Assembly: GCA_024641335.1 (NCBI GenBank)
Contig: JAHEDG010000005.1
Span: 27,779-91,778 of the forward strand
Length of the DNA: 64,000 nucleotides
DNA from: Candidatus Zixiibacteriota bacterium
Lineage (GTDB): Bacteria; Zixibacteria; MSB-5A5; UBA10806
Direction of reading: 5' to 3'
Shown: piece by piece, positions 12,300 through 56,025 of the stretch
How positions within the stretch are numbered: the stretch's first letter is position 1
Layout: every line of letters begins with the position of its first letter
Position numbers and translations under genes: made by a program
Notes under the pieces: generated by a model
The model's database searches: none
The model's input: only the letters and a program-made list of their open reading frames with translations
Told to the model about the DNA's origin: nothing

Positions 12300-12376
12300 T
12301 GGTGGGCGATACTGGAATCGAACCAGTGACCCCTTGCATGTCAAGCAAGTACTCTAACCATCTGAGCTAATCGCCC
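12300..12376 (-). tRNA. tRNA-Val (anticodon GAC)
   Basis: Minus-strand GGGCGAUUAGCUCAGAUGGUUAGAGUACUUGCUUGACAUGCAAGGGGUCACUGGUUCGAUUCCAGUAUCGCCCACCA folds as a cloverleaf with anticodon loop UUGACAU and an encoded CCA. It lies 38 nt upstream of the thrS start. Confidence 0.85.
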
Positions 12377-42516: not shown

Positions 42517-43019
42517 GTTTTCTCTTCGGTCATCAGTCGTTCGGTTTGACTTGGGTACAAATCGGCGTCGTATTTATCGTTGAAGATATACTGGGCGCGC
42601 ACGCCTCCGGATGCATTCATCTTAAACAGCTTTGCCGGCTGACCATCGGCCGCCGACGGGATTTCCACATACGATTCCAGCTGATAATTTCTGGAATACC
42701 GGTTCAATATATATGGAATGGAAAAGGCCCTTTTAGTTTCCCACAAATTACGAGTAATTACGATATTTACGATATATTCCCCGGCCAACGGTTTATCGTC
42801 CGGGCCATTCAGGAGTCTGAACCTGCCGGGAAAACTGGCCAGACGCAGCTCTCTTTCCAAAGCCTCGGCCAAACGGTTCGAGGGATATTCGGCGACTTCG
42901 TTCAGGGATGTTATGGTTAATGCCAGATTGTCGGTTGGAATTTTCGAGCCCCAGGCAGAAATTCCGGGAATTCCTAAAAGCAATAACGATACAACTACTA
43001 CCCGGGACACTCTACTCAT
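42462..43019 (-). CDS. hypothetical secreted/periplasmic protein
   Basis: 185 aa with an N-terminal signal peptide (VVVVSLLLLGIPGISAWG). It overlaps the downstream receiver ORF by 55 nt. Confidence 0.4.
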   Translation of the reverse strand: MSRVSRVVVVSLLLLGIPGISAWGSKIPTDNLALTITSLNEVAEYPSNRLAEALERELRLASFPGRFRLLNGPDDKPLAGEYIVNIVITRNLWETKRAFSIPYILNRYSRNYQLESYVEIPSAADGQPAKLFKMNASGGVRAQYIFNDKYDADLYPSQTERLMTEEKTCRKLAEKLAGYLMANMK

Positions 43020-43761
43020 GATCCCCGCCGCCTTGTTTCCTGGATTCCACCTGCTGTTTGTAAATATACTGTACTACCAACTTTTGAAGGTTCTCGTCGA
43101 ATGTGCCGCTTCCTTCAGGTAGAAACTCGCCCAGCCTCTCGAGATTATATTTCGAGCTGTTAGCCTCATTTATGAATTCAGCCCCGACCAAAGACTTGCC
43201 GTCATCCAGAGATTCCACCCTCTTCACCACCGAAAGGATATTTTTCAGGGTATGATTGTCTCGCAGCCTTAAATTGACTACCAGGAGACTGCCCTCTTTA
43301 TGCTTTTCCCCGGACTCGAACAGGATTCCTCCGGCGGAAATATTAAGAAGATCACCTTTAGCCTCGGCGCTCAAAGCCCCGGTCATGTTTTGAGGATCAT
43401 CCAATATCCTGAAACTGATTTTACCCGAAATATCCAGCCTGACAAATTGCCGCCTCTGAACACGTTCCGTCTCGCTTATCTTTTCCAGTTCGGCAGAACT
43501 GCCCTCGCCAATAAACAAATCCTTTATGCTGGCCTTAAAAGTGTAGGCGGCGTCATGCTTATTATAGCTAACGTCCACTACGTCTCCTTTTGAAAGGTTA
43601 GTATTTCCACTCTGCTTTATGGGCATTTCGATGACGTATGAGCGCCTTTTTATATTTTCGATCCTGCTGAGATATTCCCCGGCCTGACCGCCACGGGTCA
43701 CCCGGATGGCTATTTTATCCCAGAGGGAGATCGTATCTTTTTTAGTAGTATATTTCTTCAT
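43012..43761 (-). CDS. YcgR-like PilZ-domain protein (candidate c-di-GMP flagellar brake)
   Basis: 249 aa. An N-terminal YcgR-N-like domain is followed by PilZ motifs RRQFVRL (RxxxR) and NISAGGILF (D/NxSxGG). Confidence 0.7.
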   Translation of the reverse strand: MKKYTTKKDTISLWDKIAIRVTRGGQAGEYLSRIENIKRRSYVIEMPIKQSGNTNLSKGDVVDVSYNKHDAAYTFKASIKDLFIGEGSSAELEKISETERVQRRQFVRLDISGKISFRILDDPQNMTGALSAEAKGDLLNISAGGILFESGEKHKEGSLLVVNLRLRDNHTLKNILSVVKRVESLDDGKSLVGAEFINEANSSKYNLERLGEFLPEGSGTFDENLQKLVVQYIYKQQVESRKQGGGDHE

Positions 43762-44939
43762 TATGCATTGACTTTATCAGATTTCTTAATCAGGCGGTTT
43801 TGTTCCAGCGACATCTCCAGGATCTTCTTGGCGTTGGCATAAAGTGACTTGTCGCCTTTGCTCCTGGTCATCATATCCTGCGATTGCCGAGTAGTAATTT
43901 TAAAATACTCATTGGCCTTTTCGAAGTCTCCGACTCTACGGGCGAGTTCGGCTATCATATAAGACGCCTGAAGCTGCTGCAGCCCGGGTTTGATCTCTCG
44001 GCTGTTCTGGTAGGCTTTCAGATAGTTTTCTAAAGCTAAAACCAAAGCCTCAGATTCGACGACCGGGATATCTGTCCATATTTCTCTGGCCTTGTACAAA
44101 AACTCCCTGAAACTCGGGAATTCGACGAAACCGTCCTGCGCCACCATAGCGCTCTTTTGAGCCAATACTTCCTTTTTCACATTATTGAATTGAGCCTGGA
44201 GATTTAAAATATCTTTTTGCATCGAACTCCAGACATTGTGCACGCTTTCTATCGCGGGAATCAGCTTGGTCGAGATCCCGGCCGTGGAGTTAATATTAAC
44301 CGTCGGCTTGAAATCGGCCGAAATCATCTGGTGAAGCGACGGCAGGTTAGAGCCGAAATCCTCGACGTTCTTCTTTAGCCTGTCGATCTCCAACTGAATC
44401 TTACTCAACATCAGCTGCGCCGGATCGGAGGATTCTTCGCCGACATTCATGTCGCGATAGATCCAGGCAATTCTCAGATAGAATCGGGCGATATCAAGGG
44501 CGGTCGGACGGTCCAAAAGCAACTCGTCATAAATGGCTAAAAGCAGTTTGATTACGGCCGATTCGCTCGGAAATAATTCGTTGCTGATATGCGAGCCCAG
44601 GAATTTAATTATACCGTTATCTATCGCGTTGGCTTCCTGATGTTTGGCTTTCTGGCCTGGAAGTTTATAAGATTTGAAATTACTGTTATTCTGCCATTCT
44701 TTATACGTTGAATTCAATTCCCGCGAATAATAGCAGGAATTGCAGGTAGCTGTAAAATAAAGAAGAGGGTTATATTTTTGATAAACGGGATTGGCCCAGG
44801 CTCTGCCGGTTGGGGCGAAATCAGTGTCCCGACCCGATTCGGTATAGGCTCCCTGCTTGATTACCTCGAATACATTAAGATTCCCGCATATCGGACATTC
44901 GAGCTTGATGTTGAAAAAGGGTCTATTATCCGCGGACAT
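43761..44939 (-). CDS. hypothetical protein with an N-terminal CxxC...CxxC zinc ribbon (DUF2225-like)
   Basis: 392 aa; LECPICGNLNVFEV...TATCNSCYY at the N-terminus, with the remainder helical. Confidence 0.4.
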   Translation of the reverse strand: MSADNRPFFNIKLECPICGNLNVFEVIKQGAYTESGRDTDFAPTGRAWANPVYQKYNPLLYFTATCNSCYYSRELNSTYKEWQNNSNFKSYKLPGQKAKHQEANAIDNGIIKFLGSHISNELFPSESAVIKLLLAIYDELLLDRPTALDIARFYLRIAWIYRDMNVGEESSDPAQLMLSKIQLEIDRLKKNVEDFGSNLPSLHQMISADFKPTVNINSTAGISTKLIPAIESVHNVWSSMQKDILNLQAQFNNVKKEVLAQKSAMVAQDGFVEFPSFREFLYKAREIWTDIPVVESEALVLALENYLKAYQNSREIKPGLQQLQASYMIAELARRVGDFEKANEYFKITTRQSQDMMTRSKGDKSLYANAKKILEMSLEQNRLIKKSDKVNA

Positions 44940-45005: not shown

Positions 45006-45404
45006 TTATAAGCTTTCCGCGACTTCCGCTATTTCCGCGCTCCGTCTGGCCGTAGCCAATAGAATTCCCATCTCCGATTGTGAATAGCCGTACTCTCTGC
45101 CAACCTCCTCCGGCGATTCTCCCATCTGAAGCATTTGCAAAGCTCCGGCGATCCGGTTTTCGACCGTGGCCTCCGGTTGGGGCTGTTCCTTTTCGGTCTG
45201 GGGAAGATCCGTCGCGATTTCTCGTTCCTCCAGCATTGTTAGCCTGCTTAGAAGATCGGAATAATCCCGTTCGGGCTGCTGAACGCGTTGATTATCTTGT
45301 TGACTACTTTTTGCCTTCGAGTCACGCATATAAGCCCGCAGCAAAATTGCCATCACTGCCAGATTCGCCAATGACACTATCGATGTTACTATCGTGGAAA
45401 ACAT
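45006..45404 (-). CDS. hypothetical membrane-anchored protein with a C-terminal HTH-like segment
   Basis: 132 aa with an N-terminal TM helix. The C-terminal GESPEEVGREYGYSQSEMGILLATARR resembles a Fis/sigma-region-4 type HTH. Confidence 0.35.
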   Translation of the reverse strand: MFSTIVTSIVSLANLAVMAILLRAYMRDSKAKSSQQDNQRVQQPERDYSDLLSRLTMLEEREIATDLPQTEKEQPQPEATVENRIAGALQMLQMGESPEEVGREYGYSQSEMGILLATARRSAEIAEVAESL

Positions 45405-45417
45405 TGCTCCTCCTGTA

Positions 45418-45747
45418 TCAGGCCAGAAAATCTACGCTCTTGCCCTTAATATTATCGGGCGGGGACGTTTGCTGGCCGTTAGTCTTGTCCTTTTCATCAT
45501 CTTCTTCTAATTCGTCGTTTTCATCCTCTGCCGCGGTTTCTTCTTCCTCTTCGTCCTTGTGCAGAATGATTTCGTCTTTTTCGTTTTTCCGTTTTTTCTT
45601 TTTCTTCTCTTCGGCGATTTTCCTGTCTAGCTCGGCCACAAATTGCTTTTTTGTGGCCTCCCCGGTGCTGCCTTTCTTGGTATGCCGAACCTCTCTTATC
45701 GGTTCGCTTCGGGCCAGGTCGTTGTTCATTTCCACCCGTTCAATCAT
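45418..45747 (-). CDS. hypothetical highly charged (Lys/Glu/Asp-rich) protein
   Basis: 109 aa with low-complexity KKKKKRKNEKDE / EEEEETAAEDENDELEEDDEKD tracts. Confidence 0.3.
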   Translation of the reverse strand: MIERVEMNNDLARSEPIREVRHTKKGSTGEATKKQFVAELDRKIAEEKKKKKRKNEKDEIILHKDEEEEETAAEDENDELEEDDEKDKTNGQQTSPPDNIKGKSVDFLA

Positions 45748-45777
45748 GGGCCGCTCCAGTTAAAGCGTGATCTTTGT

Positions 45778-46536
45778 CTAAATTGCGAACTTGTCTCTAA
45801 TGGATATCCTCAGACGGGAGACAGCGCGCGTATGAATCTGCGATACCCGGGATTCGGATATCAGCATAATATCACCTATTTCCTTGAGAGTCAGTTCCTC
45901 ATAATAATAGAGAGAGACGACCAAACGTTCCTGCTCGGTCAGTCCGCTGATGGCCTGCATCAGGTACGCCTTCAGCTCTGTTTTTTCCATATCCGCTAAT
46001 ACATCGACCGTAGCCGTATTCTCTACTGTTTCGATTCGCGGCACCTGACGGTTATCGTCTTCGCGGCAAATCATCTCGTCCAGCGAAAGAAGCGATGAAA
46101 AACTCAAGTCTTTCTGGGCGCTGAAAAGCTCCTGAATCGAGATATCCAGAGTGGTGGCGATTTCATGGTTCGACGGACCGCGGCCGAGCTCGTTCTCTAA
46201 CTTGCTTACCGCCCGGTCGATATTTCTTGCCTTGGCCCTGGTGGAACGCGGCACCCAGTCTAAAGCCCGAAGCTCATCAAGGATTGCTCCCCGGATACGC
46301 GGAACGGCGAAAGTTTCGAATTTCACGCCGCGGCCGGGATCGAAATTATTGAAAGCCTCGATCAAACCTATTACCCCTGTGTTAACCAGATCGTTCAAAT
46401 CGACCGATTTGGGAAAAGTAGCCGCCATGCGTCCGGCCACATTTTTAACCAGGGGGAGATAATTGTTGAGGAGCTTATCCCGAACCTCGGAATCATTTGT
46501 TTCTTTGTAGTGTTCCCAGATTGCTGTAATTGCCAT
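45778..46536 (-). CDS. fliA: flagellar sigma factor sigma-28
   Basis: 252 aa with sigma-70 regions 2, 3 and 4 (LVKNVAGRMAATFP...GVIGLIEAFNNFDPGRGVKFETFAVPRIRGAI). Confidence 0.9.
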   Translation of the reverse strand: MAITAIWEHYKETNDSEVRDKLLNNYLPLVKNVAGRMAATFPKSVDLNDLVNTGVIGLIEAFNNFDPGRGVKFETFAVPRIRGAILDELRALDWVPRSTRAKARNIDRAVSKLENELGRGPSNHEIATTLDISIQELFSAQKDLSFSSLLSLDEMICREDDNRQVPRIETVENTATVDVLADMEKTELKAYLMQAISGLTEQERLVVSLYYYEELTLKEIGDIMLISESRVSQIHTRAVSRLRISIRDKFAI

Positions 46537-46575: not shown

Positions 46576-47361
46576 TTATCGTCCTGCGGAGCCGGAAATT
46601 GGAAGTAGTTCTATGCCGGTTTCAGGATCTGTTTCACTATGCAACACCCCGGACCTGTTCAAACTGATATTTTTCACGAATGAGATGAATTCGGCGGCGT
46701 TATTATCGATAACGAACTCTTCATATTCCCGCTCTGTTCGACGATACGTGTAACCGCCGTTGCCGACCTTCATCCCGAGAAATTGCCCCGTCAGAATATC
46801 AAACCTCTCCTTGAATGAAAGAGCGTGCTCCGGAGAATTGACAAACCCGAATACGGCTTTGACCCGTTCGGCCAGACCCTCCAAAGCCAGCGATTTCAAC
46901 AGACAGTATGACGATGCCACCGCGGAAGCTTCCGGTTTAATCAGAAGGAATATTTCCTCGCACAAATCGGCGGCGGCCATGGCCAGCGGATGATTCCCCG
47001 CCGGTGGATCGATAACCATGACCCCATACTTCCGTCCAAGACCGTGAATACTCCTGACCAGATTTTCAAGATCCCTGCGTCCGGGGTTGAGAACATCCGG
47101 AGGATTACAGGTTAAAAGATCGAATCCCATACCGGTATTTGTCACCAGTTCCTCGAGTCCGTTGTCGGCCTGGAAAATCTGATGGTAATCCGGAATGGCG
47201 CCACCGACTATATTCAATCCGCCGGTCCCGAAACAGAAATCGATCAATAACGTTTTCTGTCCGTAACGGGCCATGCTGATGGCGCTTCCCAAAGCGGAAG
47301 CGGTTCTGCCTGAACCCCCGGCGCCAGAAAGGAATACGATACCTTTAGCCGTTTCGGTCAT
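46576..47361 (-). CDS. flhG: MinD/ParA-family flagellar number regulator FlhG (YlxH-like) with a degenerate Walker A motif
   Basis: 261 aa with a MinD-like fold, immediately downstream of flhF. The P-loop reads IVFLSGAGGSGRTAS instead of SGKGGVGKTT. Confidence 0.7.
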   Translation of the reverse strand: MTETAKGIVFLSGAGGSGRTASALGSAISMARYGQKTLLIDFCFGTGGLNIVGGAIPDYHQIFQADNGLEELVTNTGMGFDLLTCNPPDVLNPGRRDLENLVRSIHGLGRKYGVMVIDPPAGNHPLAMAAADLCEEIFLLIKPEASAVASSYCLLKSLALEGLAERVKAVFGFVNSPEHALSFKERFDILTGQFLGMKVGNGGYTYRRTEREYEEFVIDNNAAEFISFVKNISLNRSGVLHSETDPETGIELLPISGSAGR

Positions 47362-47370
47362 CTCTTCGCC

Positions 47371-48708
47371 CTACGCCGTTATCTTCTCTAAGGTCTTGCT
47401 TCTCTCCACAGGCATCAGTGACGCCGTGAATACGCCGGGATTGAACGATTCGAACATGCCCGGCAGCTCTCTCGACGAACTCTGATACGAAAATCTCAGA
47501 CCGCGTTGAATAGCCGACCCGATGATCCCGCCGCGATAAGCGCTCTGATCGAGCTTAGTTACCAGAAGCCTGTCCAGCGACAAATCGGAGTGGTTTTCGA
47601 AAAAGGCGTTGAGATCTCCGGACGATATATCCGCCGGCACAACCAGGTGAACTTCGTGCGGATTGGCCGCGCCTATCATCGCGGTGAGTTCCCCTATCTC
47701 TTTTTGATTGGTGATCCCGCTGGTATCGATTAAGACGACTCCCTCCTTGAAAGTCTTCATTAATACGGCCATTTCCTGCGGGGTCGAGATAGCCGAGAAA
47801 GAACAGCCTATTACATTGGCCAGTGACATCAGCTGTTCATGCGAATCGGCCCGGAATTTATCGGTCGTAATCAGGGATACGCTGCAGTCGTTCTCTAAGC
47901 TGAAATGGAACGCCAGACGGGCGGCCGCGGATGTTTTGCCGCCACCGGTAGGTCCCACCAGCATAATCACCGTCGGACCGCTTTCGGCCAGCTTGATCGG
48001 CTCGCCGGTATTCAGCATGCCGGTAATATTCTTCACTATCTGGGTCCAGCCGGCCTGCCTGTCATTGGAACGGAGATTTTCGACCGGAATATTCTTTATT
48101 ATTTCAAGCGCGATATGCTCGGGCAGATGTTTCTCCACCAGGCCGCGGGCGTAATCCAGCTGGGAACCCAAAGGCTCGCCAAAAAGAGATCTTTCGGCCC
48201 TGTTGGCCAGACTCGAACGTAATTCGTGAATTTCGTTCTTTATTCCGTCGAGAGCGTCGTCGGATAAACCGCTTTCCTCGCGGGGAGCGTCGGCCCGTTC
48301 GAGCTTTTCATGGAGATCCTTCTTCATCTGCAGAATCTCGCTTCTTATCTCTCCGAGAATCTCGCTGGGAAGAGGGCGAGGTTCCATGACCGACCCTGAT
48401 TTTATCGGAGTCTGTTTTTCCGCCTCTATTATTCTGGGAGGAGTTTTCTCCTCGGTCAGACGGTTCTTAATCGGCTGCGGAATCGCGGTTTTTTCGACAA
48501 CCTGGGTTTGGGTGGACGGAATCCTGACCGGCTTGACCGCGTTATTATCGATAGCGGCGGTGACTTCAACCAGCTTCTGGTCCTTCTTCAACGGATTGCT
48601 CGAATTGCTGAAACGGGTCTTCAAAATGACCGCGTCTTCCCCAAAGTCTTTCTTGACCTTGGTCAGAGCTTCGGGCAGGCTCTTGGCGATAAACTTCTTA
48701 ATTACCAT
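47371..48708 (-). CDS. flhF: flagellar biosynthesis SRP-type GTPase FlhF
   Basis: 445 aa with a GTPase P-loop (IMLVGPTGGGKTS) and G-domain motifs (ITTDKFR, DTSG). Confidence 0.85.
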   Translation of the reverse strand: MVIKKFIAKSLPEALTKVKKDFGEDAVILKTRFSNSSNPLKKDQKLVEVTAAIDNNAVKPVRIPSTQTQVVEKTAIPQPIKNRLTEEKTPPRIIEAEKQTPIKSGSVMEPRPLPSEILGEIRSEILQMKKDLHEKLERADAPREESGLSDDALDGIKNEIHELRSSLANRAERSLFGEPLGSQLDYARGLVEKHLPEHIALEIIKNIPVENLRSNDRQAGWTQIVKNITGMLNTGEPIKLAESGPTVIMLVGPTGGGKTSAAARLAFHFSLENDCSVSLITTDKFRADSHEQLMSLANVIGCSFSAISTPQEMAVLMKTFKEGVVLIDTSGITNQKEIGELTAMIGAANPHEVHLVVPADISSGDLNAFFENHSDLSLDRLLVTKLDQSAYRGGIIGSAIQRGLRFSYQSSSRELPGMFESFNPGVFTASLMPVERSKTLEKITA

Positions 48709-50782
48709 TCGACAACCTCACTGTTTTAATGCTCTCAACTTCTATGTTTGGAATTAATTCATTAAATGATATAACCGCGACTTTCGGCAGGGCGGCCGAG
48801 ATCAACCTCCTTAGGGCCAGCCTTACATTGGGACCGGCCAGCAATAGCGGCGTGTAACCGGCGATGGACATTTCCTCGGTCGTCTCGGAAATTTCGCCGA
48901 TTATCCGCTGGGCGATCTCCGGGGGCAATACTGCCAGGATCCCTTGCTTTGTGTTTTGTATGGATTCGCTTATCAGCTTCTCTATTTCGCCATCAAGAGT
49001 AGCCACTTTCATCTTCCCATCATCATTGATGTATAATGATGAGATCGACCGGGCCAGAGACTGACGGACGTATTCGGCCAATATGTCGGTTTCTTTGACA
49101 CTCGGAGCGTAATCGGCCAGCGTTTCTAAAATCGTTCCCAGATCCTTAATCGGAATTCTCTCGTCGAGAAGATTCTGCAATACATGCTGGATCTGCCCGA
49201 TATTCAATAGGCCGGGAATTAATTCATCGATTAAAGACTGATGGTCGGCCTTGATATTCTCGACCAGCTTGGAAACCTCCTGACGGGTCAAAAACTCCGC
49301 GGCGTGGGATTTGATAATCTCGGTCAGGTGAGTCGCCAGGACCGCCGTCGGCTCCACGACTGTATATCCCCGCTTCTCGGCGATTTGCCTCTGGTTTTCC
49401 TCGATCCAGATCGCCGGTAATTCGAACGCAGGCTCCGTAGTGGCCATCCCGGCAATCGGATTGGTGATGGTACCGGGGTTTATAGCCAGCAACTGACCAT
49501 GATAGAGTTCCGACGACGCCATACTGACGCCTCGGATCTTAATCTGATATTCATTGGGCCTTAATCCGACATTATCTCTTATTCTTATAGCCGGGACAAT
49601 AATCCCCAATTCGGCTGCTATTTGACGTCTAATAATTGAAATTCGGTCCAGCAGATCATTCCCTTGAGCGGAATTGACCAGCGGTATCAATCCATAGCCG
49701 ATTTCGACTTCCAGCGTATCGACCCTTAGAAAATCCTCGATTCTTTCCGGCGGAGCGGGAGCATCGCCTGCCGCCTCTTCGGCTTCATCTAATTCGGTTT
49801 TTATCGATTTCATCGCCGAATAAGCGATAACTCCGGTTACCCCTCCCAAAAGCATGAATGGCATCGTCGGCAGACCGGGAATCATCCCGAATAAAAAGAG
49901 CATGGCCGAGGCTACGAATATCGCTCTGGGATAAGTGGTTATCTGGCGGGTCAGGTCTTTTCCGAGGTTCGAATCCGAAGCCGCGCGGGTTACCAAAATA
50001 CCGGCTGACGTGGCGATAATCAGGGCCGGTATCTGGCTGACCAGGCCATCACCTACCGTTAGTATGGTATATGTTTTCAAGGCGTCGGTTATGGACATGC
50101 CCATTTGAACCGTGCCTATTATAAATCCGCCTATAACATTGATAATTGTGATTAAAATACCGGCGATAGCGTCGCCCCGAACGAACTTTGAGGCGCCATC
50201 CATAGCTCCGTGAAAATCGGCTTCCGCGGAGATCATCTCTCTGCGTTTCCGGGCAGCTTCCTCGGTGATAAGACCGGCGTTCAGATCGGCGTCGATAGCC
50301 ATCTGCTTCCCGGGCATGGCGTCCAGGGTAAAACGGGCCGCCACCTCGGCGATTCTGCCGGCGCCCTTGGTGATAACCACAAACTGAATAATCACCAGAA
50401 TGGCGAAAATGATAAATCCGACAACATAATTCCCGGCCACCACGAAATTCCCGAACGATTCGATAACCTCCCCTGCATAGGCGCTTCCCAGAATAAGCCT
50501 GGTGGAAGCCACGTTCAGAGATAGGCGAAATAGAGTCAGAATCAAAAGCAGACCGGGAAATACCGACAACTCCATCGGACGAGTGATATACATGGTCACC
50601 AGCAATACTACCAACGCCAGGGTGATATTAAAGGCCAGCAGGAAATCCAGAATAGTCGGAGGAAGCGGCAGAACCAGCAGCCCTATAATACCGACCAGCA
50701 TAACCGCCAAAACTATATCGGAATGCTTGGTGATTTTCAGGAGAAACGGCTGATTGCCGGTGGGATTTTCCGAAGGGGCCAT
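48698..50782 (-). CDS. flhA: flagellar export apparatus protein FlhA
   Basis: 694 aa. The TM region includes the FHIPEP motif (RFTLDAMPGKQMAIDADL); a cytoplasmic domain follows. Confidence 0.95.
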   Translation of the reverse strand: MAPSENPTGNQPFLLKITKHSDIVLAVMLVGIIGLLVLPLPPTILDFLLAFNITLALVVLLVTMYITRPMELSVFPGLLLILTLFRLSLNVASTRLILGSAYAGEVIESFGNFVVAGNYVVGFIIFAILVIIQFVVITKGAGRIAEVAARFTLDAMPGKQMAIDADLNAGLITEEAARKRREMISAEADFHGAMDGASKFVRGDAIAGILITIINVIGGFIIGTVQMGMSITDALKTYTILTVGDGLVSQIPALIIATSAGILVTRAASDSNLGKDLTRQITTYPRAIFVASAMLFLFGMIPGLPTMPFMLLGGVTGVIAYSAMKSIKTELDEAEEAAGDAPAPPERIEDFLRVDTLEVEIGYGLIPLVNSAQGNDLLDRISIIRRQIAAELGIIVPAIRIRDNVGLRPNEYQIKIRGVSMASSELYHGQLLAINPGTITNPIAGMATTEPAFELPAIWIEENQRQIAEKRGYTVVEPTAVLATHLTEIIKSHAAEFLTRQEVSKLVENIKADHQSLIDELIPGLLNIGQIQHVLQNLLDERIPIKDLGTILETLADYAPSVKETDILAEYVRQSLARSISSLYINDDGKMKVATLDGEIEKLISESIQNTKQGILAVLPPEIAQRIIGEISETTEEMSIAGYTPLLLAGPNVRLALRRLISAALPKVAVISFNELIPNIEVESIKTVRLSNGN

Positions 50783-53909: not shown

Positions 53910-54379
53910 TGCCTGATTATCCCTTTTAGTATCTCGGCGAATCTGCCGCCTGATGATTCGATCCCGGTCTTGTTCGGCAGGTTTTCGAGCTTGTGGGCTT
54001 CTTCATCGTCAAGCTGGCTGATCATATTTATGCTGCTCTCGGTAGCGCCGAGCACGCTGTACTTCCCCCCGATCTTCACCAGGTACAGGATCTGTTTAGG
54101 AGAAAGATATGTCCGGCCGATTATTTTTATGGTATCGCCTATCGCCCCGCCCCCTGAAACCCGTCCGTTCAGTTTTTTGAAAAGATAAGTAAACAGGTAG
54201 ATCAAGCCGACAATCAACACCATCGAGATAATCAATTTCACGACTATCCCGAACAAAGACGGTGAATAATTAAATTCCGGAAGAACCGCTGTCGAATCCG
54301 GAGATGATGTCTGAGCGAGAACACTGCCCGACATTAGCGAACCAAAGAATATCGCTGTTTTTACTACGCCCCATTTCAT
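53906..54379 (-). CDS. fliO: flagellar biosynthesis protein FliO/FliZ
   Basis: 157 aa with a single TM helix. Its position between fliN and fliP matches FliO, and it overlaps fliP by 4 nt. Confidence 0.6.
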   Translation of the reverse strand: MKWGVVKTAIFFGSLMSGSVLAQTSSPDSTAVLPEFNYSPSLFGIVVKLIISMVLIVGLIYLFTYLFKKLNGRVSGGGAIGDTIKIIGRTYLSPKQILYLVKIGGKYSVLGATESSINMISQLDDEEAHKLENLPNKTGIESSGGRFAEILKGIIRQ

Positions 54380-55035
54380 CCTAAACTCTTAATTCTCTCT
54401 TCCTGAGATACCATCGATGTTACCCTGATTCCGAAATTCTCGTCAACCACCACCACCTCGCCTTTAGCGATAAGCTTGTTGTTGACAAGTAAATCCACCG
54501 GCTCTCCGGCCAGCCTGTTGAGTTCGACCACCGAACCGGGACCCAGATTCAGGATATCCTGGATCGGCATGGAAGTTCTGCCCAGTTCTATTGAGATCGG
54601 CAGAGTAACATCCAAAAGCATATTAATATTCTGAGCTTCGCCGGACGCGATATCGTCGGAAAGCTGATCAAAATCCTTAACTCTGACCGTGCTCATATTT
54701 TCATGAGTGCTATTCTGGTTTACTTCTGCCGGCGCCCTGGTCGGAGCTGGCTGGCTGACCGGTGGCGGTTCAGGAGAAGCCGCGACATCCTGAGAGTTAT
54801 CCTCGCTCGGTTCCTCGTCATAACTGCCCGTACCGTTTTCTCCCCTGAACGCCGCCTCGATCTCCTCCTGCGAAAGCTCTACCGAATCGTCCATGGACGG
54901 TTCCTTGATATCGTCCGGGCCGGTTCCCTGGACAGATTCGGAATCATCCGATGCTTCCGGCAAATCTCCGGGCGCCCCGTTTAGGGCATCGTCGGACATA
55001 TCCGAGTTTTCGTTATTGAGTTCTTCATCTGGCAT
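54376..55035 (-). CDS. fliN: flagellar motor switch protein FliN
   Basis: 219 aa. An acidic N-terminal region is followed by a C-terminal SpoA domain (VELNRLAGEPVDLLVNNKLIAKGEVVVVDENFGIRV). Confidence 0.85.
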   Translation of the reverse strand: MPDEELNNENSDMSDDALNGAPGDLPEASDDSESVQGTGPDDIKEPSMDDSVELSQEEIEAAFRGENGTGSYDEEPSEDNSQDVAASPEPPPVSQPAPTRAPAEVNQNSTHENMSTVRVKDFDQLSDDIASGEAQNINMLLDVTLPISIELGRTSMPIQDILNLGPGSVVELNRLAGEPVDLLVNNKLIAKGEVVVVDENFGIRVTSMVSQEERIKSLG

Positions 55036-55047
55036 GATAGTCCCCCG

Positions 55048-56025
55048 CTATTGAAAATTGGTTATCTTTACCGCTTTGTTATGTCCCACTTTGCCTGGCT
55101 GTGCCTGGAATTTCATTCTATCTCCTACCAGCAAAGTAATATCTTCGTTCTCGCTCAAATCGAGCCTGATAACATCCCCGCTTCTAAGCCGAAGCAGTTC
55201 CTTGATAGTTATATCGGTTCGGCCAAGAATAGCTATCAGCTGAGTGGTCACTCCGGAAAGCTCTATTGCGTTTTTCTCGGCGCGGTTATGGTCATCTCCT
55301 TTTTTCCTGGCTTCGATCCAGTGCTGGGCCGATAGTTTATCCATAATAGATTCTAGAGTCAGATATGGATAGCATACTGTTATCAGGCCTGACGCCGAAA
55401 GCATCTTGATCTGAAGAGATACTACTATTACAGTTTCCCCCGGAGGTACGATTTGAATAAACTGAGGGTTGCTTTCGAAAGCCGACTGAGTGAATTCCAT
55501 CTTCTCGACATGCTCCCAGGCCCTGGATAAACCCTGAAACGCCCTGCTGATTATCTTGGACATGATCGATTTCTCGATCCCGGTCAATTCCCTTTCGGTA
55601 TTTAAAGCCTTCCCCCGGCCGCCGAACATCCTGTCTACGAATGAAAAGGCGATCGACGGATTAAAATCCAATATCCCCGCCCCCTCCAGCGGATCAAGCG
55701 AGAATACGTATGTACACGAGGGAGTGGCCAATGACATGACGAACTCCGAGTAGGTTATCTGATCAACCGATATGAGATCCACGTCCACAACCGATCTGGT
55801 GAATGTGGAAAGGGTCGAGCCGAATTGGTTGGCGAAGTTGTCGTGGATCGATTCCAGCGAACGCAGCTGATCCTTGGAAACCCGGTTGGGATGCTTAAAA
55901 TCGTATAGAAGAGCCTTGCGTGCGCCCTCTACCCGAGAAGGCGCCTCGACAGTTTCGACCGGCTCCGCTGTCTGTACATTAGAAAGTAGAGCGTCGATTT
56001 CGTCTTGTGAAAGTACCTGTGCCAT
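55048..56025 (-). CDS. fliM: flagellar motor switch protein FliM
   Basis: 325 aa. The N-terminal LSQDEIDALL CheY-binding motif is present, along with a CheC-like middle domain and a C-terminal SpoA domain. Confidence 0.9.
   Translation of the reverse strand: MAQVLSQDEIDALLSNVQTAEPVETVEAPSRVEGARKALLYDFKHPNRVSKDQLRSLESIHDNFANQFGSTLSTFTRSVVDVDLISVDQITYSEFVMSLATPSCTYVFSLDPLEGAGILDFNPSIAFSFVDRMFGGRGKALNTERELTGIEKSIMSKIISRAFQGLSRAWEHVEKMEFTQSAFESNPQFIQIVPPGETVIVVSLQIKMLSASGLITVCYPYLTLESIMDKLSAQHWIEARKKGDDHNRAEKNAIELSGVTTQLIAILGRTDITIKELLRLRSGDVIRLDLSENEDITLLVGDRMKFQAQPGKVGHNKAVKITNFQ

Follow-up and report, generated by a model that had tools for sequence, protein, structure and literature searches.

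A Walker A-degenerate, very probably non-catalytic FlhG orthologue retained in the flagellar operon of a Zixibacteria-like lineage

According to current models, the number and placement of flagella depend on an ATP-driven cycle in which FlhG alternates between a cytoplasmic monomer and a membrane-bound ATP dimer, and its N-terminal helix stimulates GTP hydrolysis by FlhF. Here we describe an FlhG-like gene in which both lysines of the Walker A motif are replaced. It is located on a stretch of 64,000 nucleotides from Candidatus Zixiibacteriota bacterium (contig JAHEDG010000005.1, positions 27,779 to 91,778), which was analysed as a whole and is referred to as the window. A review published in 2025 names as hallmarks of FlhG a deviant Walker A motif, an amphipathic sequence at the C-terminus for membrane targeting and, at the N-terminus, an enhancer helix bearing the motif DQAxxLR, the glutamine of which completes the active site of FlhF (PMC12826062). 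In Vibrio FlhG, the substitution D60A abolishes ATPase activity while ATP is still bound and the protein remains almost fully functional, and the FlhG proteins of Geobacillus and Shewanella bind FliM/FliY without nucleotide dependence (PMC7226244).

Substitutions in the Walker A motif have been described for several other proteins of the MinD/ParA fold. In BcsQ, a protein of cellulose secretion, both lysines are replaced by R10 and T15 and the water-activating aspartate by Cys39; the protein is constitutively present as an ATP-sandwich dimer, its ATPase activity is very weak, and a role in one-shot assembly has been proposed (PMC7840130). Exchange of the P-loop lysine for arginine creates an ATP trap in ParA-type ATPases such as P1 ParA (K122R) and McdA (K15R), in which ATP is bound and the partner is held while hydrolysis is not stimulated (PMC8684754). 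TadZ/CpaE proteins have a Walker-A-like sequence K/RGGxGx[ST] in which the P-loop lysine is not conserved, and act as a hub for the positioning of Tad pili rather than as a motor (bioRxiv 10.64898/2026.07.08.737194).

The FlhG-like open reading frame (ORF) lies on the minus strand of the window and comprises 261 codons, starting with an ATG at 47361; the deduced protein begins with MTETAKGIVFLSGAGGSGRTASALG. A preliminary description of this DNA, made from the sequence alone, had reported an FlhG whose Walker A motif reads SGAGGSGRT, with the signature lysine changed to alanine and the P-loop lysine to arginine. The ORF proved to be real and this reading of the motif is correct, while the strand, the conservation throughout a clade of orthologues and the loss of both the enhancer helix and the membrane helix had been missed. 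In the following, stage 1 designates the clade that includes the window protein, stage 2 the orthologues P0022 and P0023, and sister group the proteins P0018, P0027, P0033 and P0037. The gene and the regions of the protein that are relevant here are as follows.

46576–47361, minus strand: degenerate FlhG orthologue with MinD/ParA fold, 261 amino acids (ORF call, phmmer against PDB, AlphaFold2 (AF2) model and Foldseek; Pfam and NCBIfam matches below threshold)
47302–47328, minus strand: degenerate deviant Walker A motif S12-G-A14-G-G-S-G-R19-T20, signature Lys to Ala and P-loop Lys to Arg (alignment, codons)
47227–47241, minus strand: switch I, D41-F-C43-F-G45, with Cys in place of the water-activating Asp (D40 of MinD, D60 of GtFlhG) (alignments)
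46996–47022, minus strand: Walker B/switch II, VMVID118PPAG, with the Asp kept and invariant in the clade (alignments)
46882–46938, minus strand: K142 and helix 7 (PEASAVASSYCLLKSLAL); S150 replaces the equivalent of MinD D152 and VaFlhG D171, and Y152 and K156 are common with FlhG (alignments)
46777–46836, minus strand: helix SPEHALSFKERFDILTGQFL, the most conserved block over all three grades (SLKxRFDxLTxxFL) (alignments)
46630–46644, minus strand: C-terminal tail peptide LHSET (clade consensus FQNET), where the amphipathic membrane-targeting helix would be (alignments, AF2)

The register of the motif was established by phmmer against all PDB chains. SGAGGSGRT (residues 12–20) aligned on SGKGGVGKT of Escherichia coli MinD (3q9l, E = 1.2e-9) and on SGKGGVGKS of G. 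thermodenitrificans FlhG (4rz3, E = 1.4e-8), and further matches were obtained to FleN and to archaeal MinD proteins. The two exchanged residues are encoded by GCC (Ala14) and AGA (Arg19). A substitute pair of lysines was sought in the N-terminus and none was found; strand 1 starts after only seven residues, and K6 lacks conservation. A longer N-terminus is impossible, because the stop codon of flhF (TAG, 47371–47373) is in frame three codons upstream of the ATG. Thus, neither of the two circumstances that could have overturned the preliminary description applies: the canonical lysines do not occur elsewhere in the N-terminus, and an error in codons 13–20 is ruled out by 20 orthologues from independent assemblies.

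A clustered-protein search (5.8e9) yielded 16 relatives with 44–53% identity to the window protein and one with 32% (30% in the alignment). The motif SG[SA]GG[SC]GRT was present in sixteen sequences, the exceptions being one with GKT and one with ART, and all sixteen carriers also have D-x-C-F-G in switch I. An exhaustive search of 1.84e9 representatives with a hidden Markov model (HMM) returned about nine representatives above 110 bits; the remainder scored at most 106 bits and were canonical FlhG proteins, many with DQAxxLR. Lysine occupied both Walker A positions in 133 of the 150 best HMM hits. Key positions were counted in an alignment of 77 sequences. Position 14, that of the signature lysine, was Ala or Ser in all 20 clade sequences as opposed to Lys in 51 of 51 other relatives, and position 19, that of the P-loop lysine, was Arg in 19 of 20 as opposed to Lys in 51 of 51. 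The substitution noticed in the window gene is therefore conserved throughout the clade. Single changes in Walker A also occur sporadically outside the clade, as in P0046 (SGKGGVGRT, 377 amino acids) and P0110 (SGHGGAGKS).

At the codon level, the orthologues use AGA, AGG or CGA for Arg19, and at position 14 they have GCC, TCC or TCA, compared to AAG in the sister group, a distance of two to three bases. The codons of the P-loop glycines likewise differ synonymously. For three unsaturated pairs of orthologues (loci L001, L002 and L005), dN/dS was 0.17–0.19 at dS values of 0.70–0.83; these pairs alone are informative, as pairs with the window gene were saturated (dS above 1.5). Among the 20 clade sequences 28 alignment columns are invariant. 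The gene is under purifying selection, and the conservation over many assemblies, the variety of codons at Arg19 and position 14 and the low dN/dS together exclude both sequencing error and pseudogenisation. An artefact or decaying relic, for which the scores below the curated Pfam and NCBIfam cut-offs and the name 'hypothetical protein' given by NCBI to one orthologue might speak, is barely conceivable in view of intact ORFs that share their length and slot in many independent assemblies, dN/dS of about 0.18, the invariant columns, a confident AF2 fold and a position 14 that is two to three bases off a lysine codon.

The losses extend beyond the Walker A motif. In the phmmer alignments, Cys43 (IDFCFG) falls on the water-activating aspartate of switch I; this position is Cys in 19 of 20 clade sequences as opposed to Asp in 49 of 51 other relatives. 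Position 150, equivalent to MinD D152, is Ser in all 20, as opposed to Asp in 46 of 51. Other parts of the pocket are kept: G13, G15, G16, T20, D41 and D118 are invariant in the 20 clade sequences, and conservation reaches at least 90% at 6 of the 10 positions of the P-loop, compared to 65 of 251 positions elsewhere (Fisher p = 0.03). One basic residue was gained. Position 142, immediately ahead of helix 7 and equivalent to N144 of MinD, is Lys or Arg in 19 of 20 clade sequences, as opposed to none of four in the sister group (Thr), none of two in stage 2 (Asp) and 2 of 51 canonical relatives. Two other lysines, K156 and K184, were considered as a relocated signature lysine and rejected, as both occur in relatives that still hold the signature lysine. 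The clade also displays specific gains of cysteine, namely C43 (19 of 20; 47233–47235), C153 (18 of 20; 46903–46905), C134 (14 of 20; 46960–46962) and Cys85 (11 of 20), none of which is shared by the sister group or by canonical FlhG. These gains and that of K/R142 (46936–46938) coincide with the loss of the Walker A lysines.

Two further hallmarks of FlhG are missing. DQAxxLR, which is present in 46 of the retrieved relatives, and a looser form of it were sought throughout the 64-kb window in six-frame translation and not found. At five orthologous loci, an N-terminal extension is excluded by in-frame stop codons immediately upstream, and the enhancer helix is absent at every orthologous locus examined, including those of the sister group. 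Within the C-terminal 30 residues the best hydrophobic moment was 0.26 for the window protein, with a median of 0.38 for the clade and of 0.66 for 39 canonical FlhG proteins. The charge of the clade tails is mostly neutral to negative, that of the listed canonical tails net positive, and AF2 predicts residues 237–261 of the tail to be disordered. The low hydrophobic moment and the acidic tail indicate that the clade is devoid of a membrane-targeting helix.

The AF2 model of the window protein (mean predicted local distance difference test score 81.8, predicted template modelling score 0.82) has the alternating strand-helix topology of MinD. The best Foldseek matches in PDB were FlhG (4rz3, E = 4e-14, TM scores 0.72/0.77; 4rz2) and FleN (5j1j); MinD, Soj and ParA ranked lower. 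Family models were matched only below their thresholds, with 21.9 bits for Pfam CbiA (cut-off 25.4) and 36 and 34 bits for the MinD equivalogs NF008079 and TIGR01968 (508 and 213), which explains why NCBI named one orthologue a hypothetical protein. An identity as MinD was rejected on these equivalog scores and on the neighbourhood, which is flagellar rather than minC/minE. BcsQ (PF06564) was rejected since the match of 21.3 bits merely equals the cut-off and is partial (residues 95–147), with no stretch significant alone and no bcs genes nearby, and the KGGVGR-motif AAA ATPase family (NF047398) since 27.1 bits compare to a cut-off of 90, the match covers only residues 7–46 and the lysine of KGG is absent.

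In a simple neighbour-joining tree with 100 bootstraps, which we regard as moderate evidence and in which the MinD outgroup sequence was verified over its first 162 residues against the PDB alignment, support was 100 of 100 replicates each for stages 1 and 2 together, for the sister group and for the three combined. The whole group is nested among FlhG proteins bearing DQAxxLR. Support for monophyly of stage 1 was 21 of 100; since stage 2 retains Lys19/Ser20, it may, judging from these residues, have split off before the lysine-to-arginine change. Based on its slot, its fold and its place in the tree, we concluded that the gene is a true FlhG orthologue of a Zixibacteria-like lineage.

The orthologues form a graded series. 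Proteins of the sister group have a canonical SGKGGVGKS with both lysines, but their switch I reads FDAGGGD, apparently without the second aspartate. In the sister group, for example in P0018 (L008, 6001–6765), switch I is shortened and there is neither an enhancer helix nor a clear membrane helix; the FlhG of this group may already be hydrolysis-poor. In stage 2 the pocket is destroyed, with SGSPLSEKS or SGSPLYGKS as P-loop, ELHSG as switch I and ISAPYG as Walker B, which also indicates that the P-loop glycines are dispensable for the fold. Stages 1 and 2 are 48–49% identical over residues 114–210 and 27–35% over residues 1–60; the C-terminal half thus constitutes the conserved core. Its conserved elements are helix 7 (VASSYCLLK), the helix SPEHAxSLKxxFDxLTxxFL, a GGF motif and the tail peptide FQNET.

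The window protein resembles FlhG (YlxH/FleN/MotR) in its slot between flhF and fliA, its fold, the xAYxLxK of helix 7 and its placement in the tree, and its host has FliM and FliN with EIDAL-type motifs, which FlhG makes use of in other species. It differs from FlhG by the absence of the Walker A lysines, the catalytic aspartate, the enhancer helix and the membrane-targeting sequence, and by the gain of K/R142, Cys43/134/153 and an FQNET-like tail. The nearest mechanistic analogue is BcsQ, in which both Walker A lysines are likewise replaced and the aspartate is changed to cysteine. However, BcsQ belongs to another family and operon, requires BcsR and makes trans contacts through N152 and R156, which correspond to Ser146 and Ser150 here. 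The resemblance is convergent and not orthologous, as indicated by the tree and the lack of a sequence match in PDB. TadZ/CpaE differs from the window protein by a basic signature residue, an N-terminal receiver-like domain and the context of the Tad pilus. A comparison with engineered alleles, namely MinD K11A, K16A and D40A, P1 ParA K122R, McdA K15R, and VaFlhG K31A and D60A, revealed that the window protein combines the equivalents of the changes at the signature lysine, from P-loop lysine to arginine and at the catalytic aspartate. While the engineered trap alleles are laboratory loss-of-function mutants, the same combination is the selectively kept wild type in this clade.

Judging from the residues present, the window protein is very probably non-catalytic. 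The lost residues, namely the signature lysine acting in trans, the P-loop lysine acting in cis, the water-activating aspartate and the equivalent of D152, are all catalytic or regulatory, while those kept hold the phosphates and Mg, a pattern from which we infer nucleotide binding without turnover. We therefore favour the reading that the protein is a nucleotide-binding, non-hydrolysing FlhG pseudo-ATPase that acts as a static adaptor or regulator, and consider this probable. An ATP-driven switch would have been converted to a pseudo-ATPase in an FlhG orthologue. As suggested by its conservation, the stage-1 pocket would still bind nucleotide, with Arg19 as the 'ATP-trap' residue and K/R142 adjoining helix 7, and turnover would be too slow to be useful. 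The protein would be held in one conformational state without cycling between membrane and cytoplasm, and would act in flagellar assembly through the conserved C-terminal half and the FQNET-like tail. GTP hydrolysis by FlhF would be controlled by some other route, without stimulation by an enhancer helix. The stage-2 orthologues serve as an internal control for this reading, as they illustrate that the glycines decay once the pocket is abandoned. Of the proposal in the preliminary description that the protein is constitutively monomeric and non-catalytic, the second half agrees with the two lost lysines, Cys43 and Ser150. As to the first half, given the invariant pocket residues and the ATP-trap nature of lysine-to-arginine changes, and by analogy to the BcsQ dimer, a nucleotide-bound, possibly dimeric, non-cycling state appears at least as likely as a monomer.

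Several points weigh against this reading. The case for nucleotide binding is built solely on conservation. In Vibrio FlhG, the Walker A change K31A abolishes function (PMC7226244), and the loss of both lysines could thus equally mean a loss of binding. Stage 2 keeps the gene with a wrecked pocket, which suggests that the conserved function is not strictly nucleotide-dependent. Finally, the likely partner, FliM/FliN of the C-ring with their EIDAL-type motifs or FlhF, is a guess from other species.

Some of these points would be accounted for if the protein were a nucleotide-free, constitutively monomeric adaptor that functions by protein-protein contacts only. Such an adaptor would be in line with the absence of both lysines and of the catalytic aspartate, with the null phenotype of Walker A mutants of Vibrio FlhG and the nucleotide independence of FlhG binding to FliM/FliY, and with stage 2, in which the gene and its C-terminal half are kept without the glycines and the Walker B aspartate. 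However, stage-1 sequences of about 50% identity show no variation at the P-loop glycines, Thr20, Asp41 and Asp118, with synonymous codon turnover, an arginine in the P-loop preserves ATP binding in ParA-type ATPases, and K/R142 was gained in stage 1 and lost again in stage 2. A nucleotide-free adaptor is plausible but, in our view, rather unlikely.

K/R142, whose gain co-varies with the disappearance of Lys14, is reminiscent of McdA, a ParA that positions carboxysomes and has a relocated signature lysine. McdA homologues have a serine at the signature position and a compensating lysine in the C-terminal half (Lys151) that reaches the ATP of the neighbouring subunit. The clade has Ser/Ala14 and the clade-specific K/R142, and the P-loop glycines are conserved. 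The protein might accordingly be viewed as an active ATPase with a rebuilt site, in which Arg19 stands for the P-loop lysine and a relocated basic finger (K/R142, K156 or K184) for the signature lysine. McdA, however, keeps the P-loop lysine and the catalytic aspartate and is a highly active ATPase, while the window protein has lost all three residues, including the signature lysine. In addition, the water-activating aspartate is Cys43 and the D152 equivalent is serine, so that four catalytic positions changed together; the lysine-to-arginine exchange is hydrolysis-dead in the ParA family; K156 and K184 already occur in relatives with the signature lysine and hence are not compensatory; and the decay in stage 2 indicates a weak constraint on catalysis. 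A rebuilt, active site is thus distinctly improbable.

Non-orthologous replacement by another ParA/MinD protein, for example a BcsQ-like one or one of the KGGVGR type, in the slot between flhF and fliA would explain the borderline match to CBP_BcsQ (21.3 bits), the weak match to NF047398 (27 bits) and the change from aspartate to cysteine shared with BcsQ. Yet the nearest sequences in the HMM search were FlhG proteins with DQAxxLR, the group is monophyletic among FlhG proteins, its sister group with canonical Walker A occupies the identical slot, the best fold matches were FlhG and FleN, and no BcsQ was among the PDB sequence matches at E ≤ 1. Such a replacement has very little to recommend it.

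The graded series can also be arranged as a stepwise rewiring of the FlhF-FlhG switch, which we put forward tentatively. Along this path, the sister group would first have lost the FlhF-activating helix, the membrane helix and the catalytic aspartate. Stage 1 would then have lost both lysines and gained Arg19, K/R142 and the cysteines, and one branch would finally have lost the pocket, the C-terminal surface and the FQNET-like tail being kept throughout.

The gene is embedded in a complete flagellar operon on the minus strand with the order flgE, fliL, fliM, fliN, fliO, fliP, (fliQ), fliR, flhB, flhA, flhF, the FlhG-like gene and fliA, followed by two small ORFs and by genes for a DUF2225 protein and a YcgR-like PilZ protein. 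As is characteristic for the position of flhG, flhF is located directly upstream and fliA downstream, and the same order occurs at loci L006, L008 and L010. The arrangement fliPQR-flhB-flhA-flhF-X-fliA-two small ORFs-DUF2225-PilZ is shared without change by the window and the related loci, which come from metagenome-assembled genomes labelled candidate division Zixibacteria or 'uncultured bacterium'. All three protein grades also keep an ORF of 185 amino acids and GAF/HisKA genes after the PilZ gene. The neighbouring genes referred to below are the following.

47371–48708, minus strand: flhF, GTPase of the signal recognition particle type, G1–G4 motifs intact (ORF list, family matches, motif comparison)
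48698–50782, minus strand: flhA (FHIPEP export gate), overlapping the start of flhF (ORF list; orthologous genes at related loci annotated PF00771)
45778–46536, minus strand: fliA (sigma-28) (family matches)
55048–56025, minus strand: fliM, with N-terminal motif LSQDEIDALL, candidate partner for a nucleotide-independent FlhG contact (sequence; FlhG-FliM/FliY binding in PMC7226244); the protein starts with MAQVLSQDEIDALL
54376–55035, minus strand: fliN, 219 amino acids, with an acidic N-terminal extension of about 130 amino acids and a second EIDAL-like motif, LSQEEIEAAF (sequence)

A second protein with a deviant Walker A motif that could serve as an alternative 'real' FlhG or MinD was sought within the 64-kb window, and none was found. 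The FlhF motifs G1 (GPTGxGK[TS]S), TTDxFRADS, IDTSG and TKLD are invariant across all three grades, and the P-loop of the window FlhF (GPTGGGKTS) is intact, as the preliminary description had stated. Its further suggestion that the organism uses FlhF without an ATPase partner is right in spirit, as the FlhF motifs are intact and the neighbouring protein has neither the ATPase residues nor the enhancer helix; the partner gene itself, however, is retained under purifying selection. The window FlhF scores just below the cut-off of TIGR03499 (170.5 compared to 174.15 bits). Its G3 motif is DTSG instead of DTAG, which is invariant in all four lineages compared, and the linker of its B domain displays large variation in length.

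The two small ORFs just 3' of fliA (45418–45747 and 45006–45404, minus strand) are syntenic at L006, L008 and L010. The first encodes a Lys/Glu-rich protein of 109 amino acids with no family match, the second a protein of 132 amino acids with a hydrophobic N-terminus and only a weak match to DUF2802 (E = 0.04). Both might be flagellar regulators specific to the lineage, or else partners of the degenerate FlhG. The region 43012–44939 (minus strand) encodes the DUF2225 protein (zinc-ribbon/TPR-like, 392 amino acids) and the YcgR-like protein with PilZN and PilZ domains (249 amino acids). Both are kept at every related locus, which suggests that control by cyclic di-GMP is tied to the flagellar cluster. 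A Ser-rich ORF of 227 amino acids with a GTG start (45080–45763, plus strand), antisense to the two small ORFs and the end of fliA, is of low complexity and probably spurious. The sole RNA gene detected in the window by Rfam and ARAGORN is a tRNA-Val (GAC) at 12300–12376 (minus strand), which has no bearing on the FlhG question.

In the full-text literature, we found neither a description of a degenerate or pseudo-ATPase FlhG nor of any FlhG in Zixibacteria. The 2025 review of FlhG makes no mention of such variants (PMC12826062), and a preprint on spirochete FlhG describes canonical motifs. As degenerate Walker A motifs are already known from other proteins of the MinD/ParA fold (BcsQ, TadZ and McdA), the principle is not new. 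The novelty lies in finding it in the FlhF-FlhG switch, in a protein that has also lost its enhancer and membrane helices, and in the graded series of orthologues.

Annotation pipelines miss these degenerate FlhG proteins, and surveys of FlhF/FlhG would misscore such genomes as having FlhF only. The graded orthologues represent a clean case of the decay of a P-loop switch to a pseudoenzyme and of convergence with BcsQ. An FlhG that is selectively maintained without catalytic residues, membrane helix or FlhF-stimulating helix, next to an intact FlhF and flagellar operon, raises the question of which functions of FlhG are essential, and also of how FlhF is switched off in this lineage. If the stepwise series is true, it would amount to a natural dissection showing that FlhG needs neither ATP hydrolysis nor membrane cycling nor stimulation of FlhF for its core role in flagellar assembly, and would point to a new binding partner or mode of binding and to a different off-switch for FlhF.

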